Below, one piece after another: positions 28,866-31,312 of a stretch of 43,132 nucleotides of DNA. Position numbers and translations under genes: made by a program. Numbering within the stretch: position 1 is the stretch's first letter; each line of letters opens with the position of its first letter. The notes beneath the pieces were generated by a model. The model was not told the origin of the DNA and ran no database searches. It saw only the letters and a list, made by a program, of their open reading frames with translations. The stretch comes from an uncultured Pseudomonadota bacterium (GTDB lineage: Bacteria > BMS3Abin14). The stretch lies in assembly GCA_964454175.1 (NCBI GenBank), contig CAYVSA010000002.1, forward strand, positions 1-43,132, in the 5' to 3' direction.

Positions 28866-29732
28866 ATGCCTGCTGATATGCTGCTGGGCGCCCACGAATC
28901 CATAGCCGGCGGTGTGGATCTGGCGCCGCAAAGGGCTGCTGAAGACGGCTGCGAAGCGCTCCAGATCTTTACCGGGGCCCCGGGTCGATGGGAAACTGCG
29001 CCTGTCAGTAACGAAAAAGCGGCGGCCTTCATGGAAGAAGTCTTCAGGTGGAACATCGGTAGTGTAGTTGTCCACGGTTCGTATCTCATCAATCCGGCAT
29101 CACCCGACGCGCCACTGTGGAAAAAGTCTCTTGAAGCTCTCATCCAGGAGTATAAGCGATGCGCAGATCTGGATGTGGATTACCTGGTTATCCACCCGGG
29201 CTCCCACCGGGGAGAAGGTGCCGCCGAGGGTGTTTCCCGGGTGGCAGAACAGCTGAACCGCTTGCTGGACGCTGTGGGAGATGGCCCGCTCCTGTTGCTG
29301 GAGAATACTGCAGGGTCGGGAAATACTCTCGGGTCGAGTTTTGGTGAACTTAGCCGTATCAGGGACAGGGTCAGCAAAAAGACCAGGGTCGCATACTGTA
29401 TGGACACGGCCCACGCGTTTGCGGCAGGGTATGATCTGTCAGTGGAAAAGAAGTTCGCCAGGGATCTCGCCGGTATCGGGTCGGAAATTGACGTTGAACT
29501 GATCCAGGTCTTTCATCTCAATGACACCTTGAAGCCGCTGGGTTCCCGTGTAGACAGGCACGCTCGCGTGGGGGAGGGGATACTTGGCATTGAACTCTTC
29601 AGGTATCTTGTGAACTGCGGTGAGTTCAGTAATTGTCCGGGAATTCTGGAAACTCCTCCAGAACCTGGATTGCGTTATTCACCTCAGCTCAGAGTCCTGA
29701 AGAGCCTGCGGGACGAGGGGCTGCAGCCTTGA
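28866..29732 (+). CDS. nfo: endonuclease IV (start may be 28878)
   Basis: LGAHESIAGG, HGSYLIN, HPGS, LLENTAG, DTAHAF, HLND, DRHA, ILETP. Confidence 0.96.
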   Translation: MPADMLLGAHESIAGGVDLAPQRAAEDGCEALQIFTGAPGRWETAPVSNEKAAAFMEEVFRWNIGSVVVHGSYLINPASPDAPLWKKSLEALIQEYKRCADLDVDYLVIHPGSHRGEGAAEGVSRVAEQLNRLLDAVGDGPLLLLENTAGSGNTLGSSFGELSRIRDRVSKKTRVAYCMDTAHAFAAGYDLSVEKKFARDLAGIGSEIDVELIQVFHLNDTLKPLGSRVDRHARVGEGILGIELFRYLVNCGEFSNCPGILETPPEPGLRYSPQLRVLKSLRDEGLQP

Positions 29733-30388
29733 CTCTGACGACCCTGTTTGCAACTGCATTCGTAGTTGCACTTTCAGGAGCCCTCATGCCGGGGCCGCTT
29801 CTGGCGGTGACGCTGGGCCACTCTCCTGCCTACGGATGGAAATTCGGCCCCATGGCGATCGTAGGGCATGGACTTCTGGAACTGGGGCTCATTTCCCTTG
29901 TTTTCCTGGGCGCTGGGCCCGTGCTGAAGGCCGCCAGTGTTCAGGGCTGGGTCGGCCTGGCTGGAGGGCTGATCCTCCTGTGGATGGGAAAAGGCATGGT
30001 GAGAGTATTAAGAGCAGGCGGCCGGGCCGCTGAAACAGGAGTAATTACAGGCAGGGGCGACAGAGCTGTCTTTCTAGGGGTAATCATGAGCGTTTCCAAT
30101 CCCTACTGGACCCTCTGGTGGGCAACGGTGGGTCTGGCTTATCTTACCGTGGCAGCCAGGAGCGGACCCATCGGCATCGCGGTTTTTTTCGCTGGCCACA
30201 TATCCGGCGACCTGGCCTGGTACACCCTGGTCTCCTTCGCAGCATCAAGGGGTGTAAAAGTGTCAGGCTCCAGATCCTACATGGCCCTGATGGCGGTATG
30301 TGCCCTGATCCTCGTGATCCTCGGGCTGTGGTTCTCTTACTACGGGGCAAGCATTCTCTTCAAGCTGGGCAGTGGGCTGGCAACTTGA
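29729..30388 (+). CDS. LysE-family translocator
   Basis: SGALMPGPL, GHGLLE, SNPYWTLWWATVG, six hydrophobic segments; TTG start overlapping the nfo stop (TTGA). Confidence 0.88.
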   Translation: MTLTTLFATAFVVALSGALMPGPLLAVTLGHSPAYGWKFGPMAIVGHGLLELGLISLVFLGAGPVLKAASVQGWVGLAGGLILLWMGKGMVRVLRAGGRAAETGVITGRGDRAVFLGVIMSVSNPYWTLWWATVGLAYLTVAARSGPIGIAVFFAGHISGDLAWYTLVSFAASRGVKVSGSRSYMALMAVCALILVILGLWFSYYGASILFKLGSGLAT

Positions 30389-30410
30389 AACCTGGAACTG
30401 CAACCTGTGT

Positions 30411-30620
30411 CATTTTTTTATCTGAAAACAATTAAATCGAAAATAATTATTAATAATCTGTTTGAATTAATGTATAAATTAATTTTATTTTTTCCCTTTG
30501 TTTGCAGTGCATTGTGCCGCTCAAATAAAATTAATATATATTAAAATAATATTTAATTAATTACTGGATTTTATTTTTTTTAATGTATAATCATAATTGT
30601 TTTCTCAATTTATTTTTCTG
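30411..30620. promoter_or_regulatory. very AT-rich promoter region with inverted and direct repeats
   Basis: 36 G/C in 210 nt (~17% GC, hand count); 13-bp perfect inverted repeat 30478-30490/30523-30535; TTAATGTATAA twice (30467, 30580); TATAAT at 30586. Confidence 0.75.
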
Positions 30621-30633
30621 AAAGGAGAGTCCA

Positions 30634-31140
30634 GTGGAACGAGAAGAGATGGAGAAAATCAAAGCCGTTCTGGAAGATGCCAGGAAAAAACTGGTTGATG
30701 TTGTGAAAAAGGGCAAGGGGGAGGCTGACAGGGTAACAAAACTGGCGCAGCTCAAGATTGAGATCGGATCCATGAACAGACAGAAAAAAGACCTCTATGA
30801 GGATCTGGGCGAAATGTTCTACAAGAACTTCAAGAAGCCGACAGATAAAGGCCAGGCAGAGGTTGCCGAGATTGTAACGCATATCGGCGGACTTGAAACC
30901 CGGATCGGGTCTTTAAAACGCGAGTTAAAAGCAGCGGGCGAGCAGGCTAAAGAGCCAGGGAGCCGCAGGGGAAGACCCCCTAAGGCCAAGGCTGGCGGAG
31001 ACACTCCAAAGAGACGGGGCAGGCCGCCAAAGGCAAAGGCCGCCGGTACAGCTCCCAAAAAGCGGGGCAGGCCGCCAAAGGCAAAGGCCGCCGGTGCAGC
31101 TCCCAAGAGACGGGGCAGGCCGCCAAAGACAGCTGGTTAG
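30634..31140 (+). CDS. coiled-coil protein with four C-terminal AT-hooks (putative nucleoid-associated protein)
   Basis: GTG start with AGGAG RBS; helical N-terminal ~100 aa; [RK]RGRPPK x4 with 16-aa period. Confidence 0.85.
   Translation: MEREEMEKIKAVLEDARKKLVDVVKKGKGEADRVTKLAQLKIEIGSMNRQKKDLYEDLGEMFYKNFKKPTDKGQAEVAEIVTHIGGLETRIGSLKRELKAAGEQAKEPGSRRGRPPKAKAGGDTPKRRGRPPKAKAAGTAPKKRGRPPKAKAAGAAPKRRGRPPKTAG
30964..31128 (+). repeat. 48-bp coding tandem repeat (AT-hook units)
   Basis: hooks start at 30964, 31012, 31060 and 31108; CGGGGCAGGCCGCCAAAG is identical in the last three. Confidence 0.9.
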
Positions 31141-31199: not shown

Positions 31200-31274
31200 G
31201 GGCGATTAACTCAGCGGGAGAGTGCTGCCTTCACACGGCAGAAGTCACTGGTTCAAATCCAGTATCGCCCACCA
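31200..31274 (+). tRNA. tRNA-Val (anticodon CAC)
   Basis: GGGCGAT/ATCGCCC acceptor stem, CTGCC-TT-CAC-AC-GGCAG, ACTGG-TTCAAAT-CCAGT, encoded CCA; TGGTATCAT extended -10 at 31180. Confidence 0.96.
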
Positions 31275-31278
31275 TAAT

Positions 31279-31312
31279 AAAAAAAGGGCTGCCTGTGCAG
31301 CCCTTGTTGTTG
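31279..31312. terminator. probable bidirectional terminator after tRNA-Val
   Basis: A-tract, AAGGGCTGC-CTGT-GCAGCCCTT, then GTTGTTG. Confidence 0.75.

Follow-up and report, generated by a model that had tools for sequence, protein, structure and literature searches.

An AT-hook-array protein with a new helical domain and a conserved AT-rich island upstream of its gene in an uncultured bacterial phylum

In the first 43,132 bp of contig CAYVSA010000002.1, from the metagenome-assembled genome (MAG) GCA_964454175.1 of the BMS3Abin14 lineage, a gene for a 168-residue protein lies directly downstream of the most AT-rich DNA of the whole assembly. This stretch of 43,132 bp is called the window hereafter, and the gene and its product are called the AT-hook gene and the AT-hook protein. 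The protein joins a helical N-terminal domain to a basic tail with four AT-hooks, the AT-rich island upstream of the gene is retained in nearly all orthologous loci, and the same genome encodes a paralogue that has a related N-terminal domain, a histone-H1-like tail and ordinary upstream DNA. We give about an even chance to the reading that the AT-hook gene encodes a lineage-specific architectural (nucleoid-associated) protein, which would bind A/T tracts and feed back on its own promoter. A previous sequence-only reading of the window had proposed a DNA-bridging or xenogeneic-silencing protein that represses its own promoter; its observation was confirmed and its interpretation was partly supported by the analysis presented here.

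Architecture of the AT-hook protein

The main elements of the locus are the following:
30411..30620, extreme AT-rich intergenic island between a LysE-type gene and the AT-hook gene (GC scan and A/T-tract count)
30523..30563, uninterrupted A/T run of 41 bp within the island, the longest of the assembly
30634..31140, plus strand, AT-hook gene (open reading frame, ORF, of 168 amino acids, GTG start, stop codon included)
30634..30948, plus strand, N-terminal helical domain, residues 1-105 (AlphaFold2 model; helices 2-26, 28-66 and 71-103)
30949..31137, plus strand, disordered basic tail, residues 106-168, with four [RK]RGRPPK AT-hooks (Pfam AT_hook, composition, and a predicted local distance difference test, pLDDT, below 50)
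31006..31128, plus strand, 48-bp tandem repeat of 2.5 copies with 92% matches, coding for hooks 2-4 (Tandem Repeats Finder)

The 168-aa ORF, its helical N-terminus and its basic tail with four hooks 16 aa apart had all been described in the sequence-only reading, and were borne out by the ORF itself, by Pfam AT_hook and by AlphaFold2. The AT_hook family (PF02178) matched four stretches of the protein, with 21 bits against a Pfam cut-off of 17.4. The GRP cores are placed at residues 113, 129, 145 and 161, with a spacing of exactly 16 aa. When the [RKG]RGRP core was searched across the reading frames of the genome, 35 frames with any core were identified and the AT-hook gene was the sole one with more than one (four); the other 34, mostly short frames, held one core each. 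The tail has a net charge of +21, contains 2% D and 2% E, and ends in ...PPKTAG.

The AlphaFold2 model was built on an alignment of 40 family members. It gave pLDDT values above 90 across about residues 31-100, with helices 2 and 3 of the N-terminal domain forming a long antiparallel hairpin, and predicted disorder from residue 105 to residue 168. A variant of the protein, P0001, is 97% identical to it and has 152 aa, that is, 16 aa less; this length is consistent with one unit fewer of the tandem repeat.

The AT-rich island

The assembly as a whole (2.17 Mb in 135 contigs, 98.5% complete) served as the reference for the composition of the island, with N excluded from the scans. Within the window, the 200-bp bin at 30401-30600 has 18.5% G+C (GC), and all the others range from 40.5 to 64.5%. 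The island is thus the only extreme AT-rich block of the window, as had been claimed, but the accompanying statement that the window is otherwise above 50% GC was slightly too strong. At the scale of the assembly, the 200-bp stretch with the lowest GC was 30412-30611, with 16.5%, followed by one with 23.5%; the genome mean was 53.3%, with a standard deviation of 4.7%. The 150-bp window of lowest GC, with 16.0%, was also found in the island (30440-30589). Ten A/T tracts of at least 6 bp cover 145 of its 210 bases, the first rank of the assembly, while the genome-wide share of such tracts is 4.5%. The 41-bp pure A/T run is followed in length by a run of 26 bp.

There are 72 scaffold gaps of 100 N in the assembly. 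In a naive GC scan these look like extreme AT-rich blocks, and further AT-rich DNA could be hidden in them; the end of the window (43132) abuts one of them (G000:C2:43133-43232). Phased A-tracts giving intrinsic curvature were also considered in the island and rejected: its 10-11-bp periodicity was reached by 678 of 1000 shuffles, and the phasing is not conserved, as only two of 11 other loci stand out in this respect. An 18-nt inverted repeat with 94% complementarity (30473-30490 and 30523-30540) flanks the only GC-richer core of the island, at about 30494-30522, and may be either a site or due to chance.

Family and distribution

A word-indexed search of 5.8 billion proteins gave 155 homologues of the AT-hook protein at E <= 0.001. 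Among the 120 matches listed, 99 had E <= 1.5e-28, and all came from metagenomes or MAGs. Homologues were named either as hypothetical or with inconsistent automatic labels ('chromosome segregation ATPase', 'histone H1/5', 'Zn-ribbon protein'), and the name of one of them refers to 'bacterium BMS3Abin14', a label given to a candidate phylum in papers. The automatic JGI annotation of some family members reads 'predicted nucleic acid-binding Zn-ribbon protein'. No description of the family was found in the open-access literature searched.

The phylum of the window consists of 16 species genomes, which belong to a single family. Thirteen of them carry a full-length orthologue (E <= 3.6e-40), at 14 loci, two of which belong to genome G012. 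In G004 there was only a fragment of the orthologue, at a contig end, and in G006 and G013 (80% and 78% complete) it was not found with the AT-hook protein as query. A scan of 185,579 species genomes with an alignment as query gave 9 loci, all within the same phylum. A single-protein query against the contigs of the species genomes gave no match, and no relative of the protein was found in viral contigs.

The two copies in MAG G012 (71% complete, 3% contamination), L003 and L017, are 72-74% identical to the query, both with an AT-rich block of their own upstream and a tRNA-Val gene in the vicinity; they may represent either a real duplication or two strains binned together.

The 40 aligned family members mostly carry four GRP cores (27 members), the remainder having one (3 members), two (2), three (6) or five (2). 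The spacing between cores was 12-27 aa, with two outliers of 6 and 32 aa, and AT_hook was matched at E <= 0.01 by 30 of the 40 members.

Conservation of the upstream block

At the 14 genome loci, the lowest-GC 150-bp window was located 110-220 bp upstream of the gene in 13 cases, with 17-27% GC in loci of 44-60% GC; the exception was a genome of 65% GC. Afterwards, 21 metagenome loci were added, and a common metric was applied in which the lowest GC of any 150-bp window in the 350 bp before the gene is compared with the rest of the locus. Three metagenome loci, one genome locus and one locus of the paralogue described below were dropped, as they have less than 200 bp of upstream DNA. The results were as follows:
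Metagenome orthologues, 18 usable loci: upstream minimum at or below 30% GC in 17, upstream minimum equal to the locus minimum in 17
Genome orthologues, 13 usable loci: upstream minimum at or below 30% GC in 11, upstream minimum equal to the locus minimum in 13
Paralogues, 10 usable loci: upstream minimum at or below 30% GC in none, upstream minimum equal to the locus minimum in 1

The upstream block is therefore the GC minimum of the locus in 30 of the 31 usable orthologous loci. The 35 gene copies grouped into 30 clusters at 95% nucleotide identity; with four duplicates taken out, 27 distinct usable loci remained, and in 26 of them the minimum was upstream. The block is conserved in composition but not in sequence, apart from a promoter-like motif and a ribosome-binding site, which recur. 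The sequence-only reading had made its case depend on homologues keeping both AT-rich upstream DNA and the hooks. The first was found in the proportion just given, and all 40 aligned members have at least one hook.

Identity of the N-terminal domain

No Pfam, NCBIfam or PDB family was found to account for the N-terminal domain, which in the sequence-only reading had not been recognized as H-NS, Lsr2, MvaT, Rok, CarD or HU. Scans of the AT-hook protein against Pfam and NCBIfam gave, besides AT_hook, only sub-threshold coiled-coil noise, and no family except AT_hook was matched by more than three of the 40 members. A sequence profile search of the PDB with the N-domain family gave nothing below E 0.02. 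Fold searches with the N-domain model yielded generic helical hairpins only: there was no Foldseek match at E <= 0.001, and the best Z of VIA-align was 11.3 (designed helical hairpins, SMC/Rad50 arms, ESCRT-III), the noise of this tool being about 13 for helical models. H-NS, Lsr2, MvaT, Rok, GapR and HU were not listed among these fold matches, although a search below the noise level does not exclude them. In the ESM Atlas the best score was 0.85, within the stated noise of the tool. The helical hairpin/zinc-ribbon proteins HP0958 and CT398 are among the weak fold matches.

Individual families were also considered. In the AT-hook protein, Histone_HNS (PF00816) was not matched even at E <= 10, and there was no match to the Lsr2 domain (PF11774). 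CarD_CdnL_TRCF (PF02559) was matched neither by the AT-hook protein at E <= 10 nor by the 40 members at E <= 0.01. No phasin family appeared among the Pfam and NCBIfam matches of the AT-hook protein, the 40 members or 11 paralogues.

Five residues of the domain (G27, A38, E43, L54 and G59) are invariant in the 40 aligned members. In each of the three helices the conserved hydrophobic positions follow a 3-4 (heptad-type) spacing, and helix 2 has more than one hydrophobic face. This pattern is compatible either with a closed three-helix bundle or with intermolecular packing. A homodimer prediction with two copies of residues 1-108 gave a score of 0.21 against a mark of 0.42, with controls not run, and counts neither for nor against self-association.

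When the N-terminal domain alone (residues 1-105) was compared by phmmer with 1.84 billion representative proteins, 17 were found at E <= 0.001, several of them long coiled-coil proteins. P0131 and P0133 are borderline relatives of the domain (E about 1e-4) with other ends: P0131 has a C-terminal CPxCG...CPxCG zinc ribbon and P0133 consists of the domain alone.

A paralogue with a histone-H1-like tail

Most genomes of the phylum gave a second, weak match when they were searched with the AT-hook protein. In the genome of the window this corresponds to a paralogue of 192 aa on contig C69 (L002:1426-2001). Comparison of the two N-terminal domains with hhalign, restricted to N-domain columns, gave a probability of 97.2% and E 4e-11 over 97 ungapped columns, and pairwise BLASTP of the two proteins gave E 2e-6. 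In addition, the profile of the paralogue cross-matched nine AT-hook orthologues, with E from 1e-9 to 1e-12. The true paralogue (E <= 2.5e-51) was found in 13 of the 16 genomes, the three genomes without it being 71-81% complete. Its model has a mean pLDDT of 62 and shows long helices followed by a disordered tail.

The tail of the paralogue is K/A/P-rich and has no GRP core in any of 11 members. It was matched by Pfam HC2 in 3 of these 11, by NCBIfam hist_H1_lk_Burk in 3 and by NCBIfam histone_lik_HC2 in 1; such matches are of low complexity and concern the tail only.

None of the 10 usable paralogue loci has an upstream minimum at or below 30% GC, as indicated above. Similarly, the upstream minima of the three HU/IHF genes of the genome are 33%, 40% and 52% GC (the last beside a scaffold gap), versus 16.7% at the AT-hook gene. 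As both the paralogue and HU/IHF have ordinary upstream DNA, the island tracks the hook-bearing member, and not the N-domain family or the genes of DNA-binding proteins in general.

Proposed function

Under the architectural reading, each of the four HMGA-type hooks would enter the minor groove over about 5-6 bp of uninterrupted A/T DNA, and one tail could thus read several adjacent A/T tracts. The three-helix N-terminal domain would serve as a protein-protein module, probably a self-associating one, letting the protein link or coat DNA; DNA bridging would be one form of this. As the promoter and leader of the AT-hook gene hold the densest A/T-tract cluster of the genome, and this cluster is kept across the phylum, they would be the best binding platform available to the protein. 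The protein would then occupy its own island and feed back on transcription, most likely negatively, as H-NS does. We infer this autorepression from the conserved pairing of a hook protein with an A/T island. The paralogue with the H1-like tail would be a sequence-unspecific counterpart. The H-NS domain and the Lsr2 domain were found in none of the 16 genomes of the phylum, and hence those families do not fill the role of an AT-binding architectural protein. Genes for HU/IHF occur in 15 of the 16 genomes, about three in each.

Several observations weigh against this proposal. The assembly contains no more than 10 blocks of 200 bp with 30% GC or less, so there are few strongly AT-rich targets for a genome-wide A/T-specific role. 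The number of hooks is variable, and 3 of the 40 members retain a single one. The three helices of the N-terminal domain in the model could simply pack together as a monomeric bundle. The loci compared are related by descent and not independent samples, and their counts overstate independence. Moreover, the upstream dip is modest in L014, the locus of the 65% GC genome (42.7% versus 66%), and metagenome locus L066 has no dip beyond the background. Codon usage gives no sign of unusually high expression, the codon adaptation of the AT-hook gene being 0.706, with a median of 0.718 for ribosomal genes and a background of 0.699; this is a weak test, codon bias being weak in this genome. The island also holds a sigma-70-like promoter and a leader, and part of its AT-richness may serve expression instead of protein binding. 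Finally, all the genomes are MAGs of uncultured bacteria.

Promoter region and alternative explanations

The following signals were identified in the island and at its downstream edge:
30584..30591, plus strand, candidate extended -10 element TGTATAAT, read from the sequence, about 43 bp before the start codon
30620..30627, plus strand, ribosome-binding site GAAAGGAG, present in near-identical form before the start codon in orthologous loci
30467..30477 (copy 1) and 30580-30590 (copy 2), plus strand, 11-bp direct repeat TTAATGTATAA, with 100% identical copies 113 bp apart

The -35 hexamer paired with the candidate -10 is poor in the window genome, and a strict consensus scan of the island detected no promoter. 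By-eye comparison of the relatives showed at the matching place TTGAAT or TTGAAG, a 17-bp spacer and TGTAnAAT, a sigma-70-like arrangement. Copy 2 of the direct repeat overlaps the -10-like element, and a chance repeat is possible in DNA of such AT-richness. An Rfam scan gave only tRNA, and the leader RNA of the AT-hook gene folds no better than shuffled sequences (z = 0.05).

These data are pertinent to the alternative that the island is a very strong promoter, with UP-element-like A/T DNA and an unstructured leader, for an abundant DNA-binding protein that would not act on the island, the pairing of island and hooks being coincidental. A/T-rich UP elements do occur upstream of strong promoters, many orthologous loci have the sigma-70-like motif and the strong ribosome-binding site inside the AT-rich block, and a leader without special fold agrees with this possibility. 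However, the block, of about 210 bp, is far longer than an UP element and is the single most extreme one of the genome. No comparable block is found at the H1-like paralogue or at the three HU/IHF genes, all of them presumably well expressed as well. Codon usage, with the weakness already noted for this test, does not point to exceptional expression, and the strict scan detected no consensus promoter in the window island. We therefore regard this explanation as possible but clearly in the minority.

A second alternative, to which we assign a somewhat smaller chance, is that the AT-hook protein is an adaptor or tether, its N-terminal domain binding some other partner (a protein complex, a granule or a membrane site) and its basic tail anchoring that partner to the nucleoid in the manner of PhaF. 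PhaF-type phasins combine a phasin domain with a histone-H1-like tail. In favor of an adaptor, one genome combines the N-terminal domain with two different predicted DNA-binding tails, the borderline relatives P0131 and P0133 bear a zinc ribbon or no tail, and the domain, with its five invariant residues, is conserved more tightly than a generic coiled coil. Nevertheless, neither a phasin nor any other partner-binding family was detected in any member, and the only conserved neighbors that could encode a partner are those for the LysE-type exporter and an AP endonuclease. The adaptor hypothesis also leaves unexplained why only the hook-bearing paralogue has an A/T island.

The hooks could also place the protein at A/T-rich regions upstream of promoters while the helical domain contacts RNA polymerase or a co-regulator, as in a CarD-like transcription factor that would activate or repress a regulon containing its own gene. 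The same logic has been described for Myxococcus CarD, with a protein-interaction N-domain and four hooks, and with an H1-like tail in an analogue (PMC2919716). Furthermore, the few AT-rich islands found elsewhere in the genome lie in intergenic regions on the promoter side. This proposal appears improbable, as no CarD_CdnL_TRCF or other RNA polymerase-binding family was matched at the thresholds mentioned above, and the acidic region of CarD is absent from a protein whose tail has so little D and E.

The last alternative, that the block is the DNA-unwinding element of a replication origin, was rejected: the cumulative GC skew of the window does have its minimum at about 28.7 kb, where genes switch from minus to plus, and three DnaA boxes with one mismatch lie within 80 bp (29116-29196), but these sites fall inside the coding sequence of the AP endonuclease (Pfam AP_endonuc_2), dnaA is on contig C35 with its own switch of skew sign, and in relatives assembled as a single contig the skew switches at dnaA in G008 and G003 (G005 being unclear), in none of the three at the orthologue locus, which is 0.6-1 Mb away from dnaA. 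The origin explanation is thus largely refuted and hardly credible.

Genomic setting

The neighboring elements of the AT-hook gene are the following:
29633..30388, plus strand, LysE-type exporter gene, upstream neighbor (Pfam LysE, E 4.9e-26)
31200..31274, plus strand, tRNA-Val(CAC), 59 bp downstream of the AT-hook gene (ARAGORN, Rfam)
31284-31305, hairpin terminator after tRNA-Val(CAC) (terminator scan)

The LysE-type gene was directly upstream of the AT-hook gene in 28 of 34 orthologous loci and was itself preceded by the AP-endonuclease gene in 20 of 34, both counts being limited by the length of the flanks. The LysE-type ORF, which begins with TTG at 29633, shares 100 bp (29633-29732) with the end of the AP-endonuclease ORF; since its Pfam match begins at residue 47, the true start is probably further downstream. 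Co-transcription with the tRNA as the reason for the island was rejected, as a tRNA-Val gene is found near the orthologue at just 6 of the 13 other genome loci, where its distance is 0.55-1 kb and its strand varies.

The window consists of core housekeeping DNA, with genes for pantothenate, lysine and arginine synthesis, HslUV, topoisomerase I, DprA, RNase R, ClpB, glycolysis and BamD. The nine runner-up AT islands of the genome also flank housekeeping genes (PriA, the PilM operon, redoxin/thioesterase, glutamate-synthase-like, TetR-family and methionine-synthase-like genes, and others). The suggestion of xenogeneic silencing made in the sequence-only reading thus found no support.

A sharp polarity switch was observed at about 28.7 kb, with genes and GC skew on the minus side to its left and on the plus side to its right, both in the window and in G000:C2 beyond it; the likely origin is nevertheless at dnaA, on contig C35. 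The window contains 12 DnaA-box-like 9-mers with one mismatch, versus 6.3 expected.

Comparison with known systems

To our knowledge, the bacterial chromatin proteins that recognize AT-rich DNA make up a handful of families (H-NS, MvaT, Lsr2 and Rok), all from cultured groups, and arrays of full HMGA-type AT-hooks have hardly been studied in any bacterial protein other than myxobacterial CarD. The phylum described here, which lacks the H-NS and Lsr2 domains, keeps together a hook-array protein with a new helical domain, a sister protein with an H1-like tail, and an A/T island restricted to the promoter of the hook gene. This combination bears on how AT-hook proteins can be wired into feedback control. 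In addition, a new domain family, at present absent from Pfam, is defined for use in annotation.

According to PMC6936261, H-NS-like bridging proteins consist of an N-terminal oligomerization domain, which dimerizes through two sites, followed by a linker and a C-terminal domain that binds AT-rich DNA. The motif used by H-NS and Lsr2 is an 'AT-hook-like' Q/RGR, and both H-NS and StpA regulate their own genes negatively (PMC6936261). The AT-hook protein resembles H-NS, MvaT, Lsr2 and Rok in its small size, helical N-terminal domain, flexible linker and C-terminal element for the minor groove of AT-rich DNA, here predicted from the sequence; the RGR core of these minor-groove readers can be recognized in four copies in its tail. 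However, there is no detectable relationship in sequence or fold. The DNA-binding part of H-NS-like proteins is a folded domain with one hook-like loop, whereas that of the AT-hook protein is a disordered array of four full HMGA-type hooks. A further difference from the H-NS class is that no link to foreign DNA was seen. Two-site oligomerization of its N-terminal domain is putative.

HMGA proteins are wholly disordered and have no folded domain. The AT-hook protein shares with HMGA1 and HMGA2 the multiple hooks with an RGRP core, the short basic/Pro/Ala linkers and the disordered chain, but it differs from them in its helical domain of 100 residues and in the lack of an acidic tail. A flanking highly acidic region or acidic tail is given as a hallmark of HMGA in PMC2919716. 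Since a recent 48-bp tandem repeat codes for the hooks, they probably arose independently of HMGA.

Another parallel in architecture is CarD of Myxococcus xanthus, which has four AT-hooks and an acidic region, and whose four-hook domain is functionally interchangeable with a histone-H1-like domain (PMC2919716). In 2010, no prokaryotic proteins with HMGA-like domains were said to be known other than CarD and its orthologue in Stigmatella (PMC2919716). P0101 and P0106 are metagenomic proteins with PKRRGRPPKA-type hook arrays (about 7 and 5 GRP cores, counted by eye) on unrelated parts, which indicates that canonical AT-hook arrays occur on several prokaryotic scaffolds and are less rare than that statement implies. 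In the CarD analogue of Anaeromyxobacter, the histone-H1-like tail can replace the hook domain with function being kept (PMC2919716). As in CarD, the AT-hook protein has a structured N-terminal domain followed by four canonical hooks, and an alternative version exists with an H1-like lysine-rich tail on the shared N-terminal domain. Unlike CarD, its N-terminal domain is unrelated, with no match to CarD_CdnL_TRCF, and an acidic region is absent. A further difference is that the hook and H1-like versions coexist here as paralogues in one genome, and for the conserved A/T island no counterpart is described for CarD in the available portion of PMC2919716.

The paralogue has a K/A/P-rich tail like Chlamydia Hc2, the Burkholderia H1-like protein and proteins of the PhaF/AlgP type, but it differs from the bacterial H1-like proteins in its N-terminal domain, which is the new family that it has in common with the AT-hook protein. 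HMGA and H1 are known to partition or compete on AT-rich scaffold regions in eukaryotes. By analogy, and only as a speculative extension of the architectural reading, the phylum might run a two-component chromatin system, in which one new self-associating helical module would carry interchangeable HMGA-like and histone-H1-like tails. Mixed oligomers would be possible, as with H-NS and StpA, the two paralogues might partition or compete on the chromosome, and the hook-bearing one might gauge its own free concentration on its autoregulatory island, which would act as a dedicated sink. If this were true, bacteria would have invented the HMGA/H1 pair independently. The two paralogues themselves provide an independent example of the interchange between HMGA and H1 tails, on an N-terminal domain unrelated to that of CarD.

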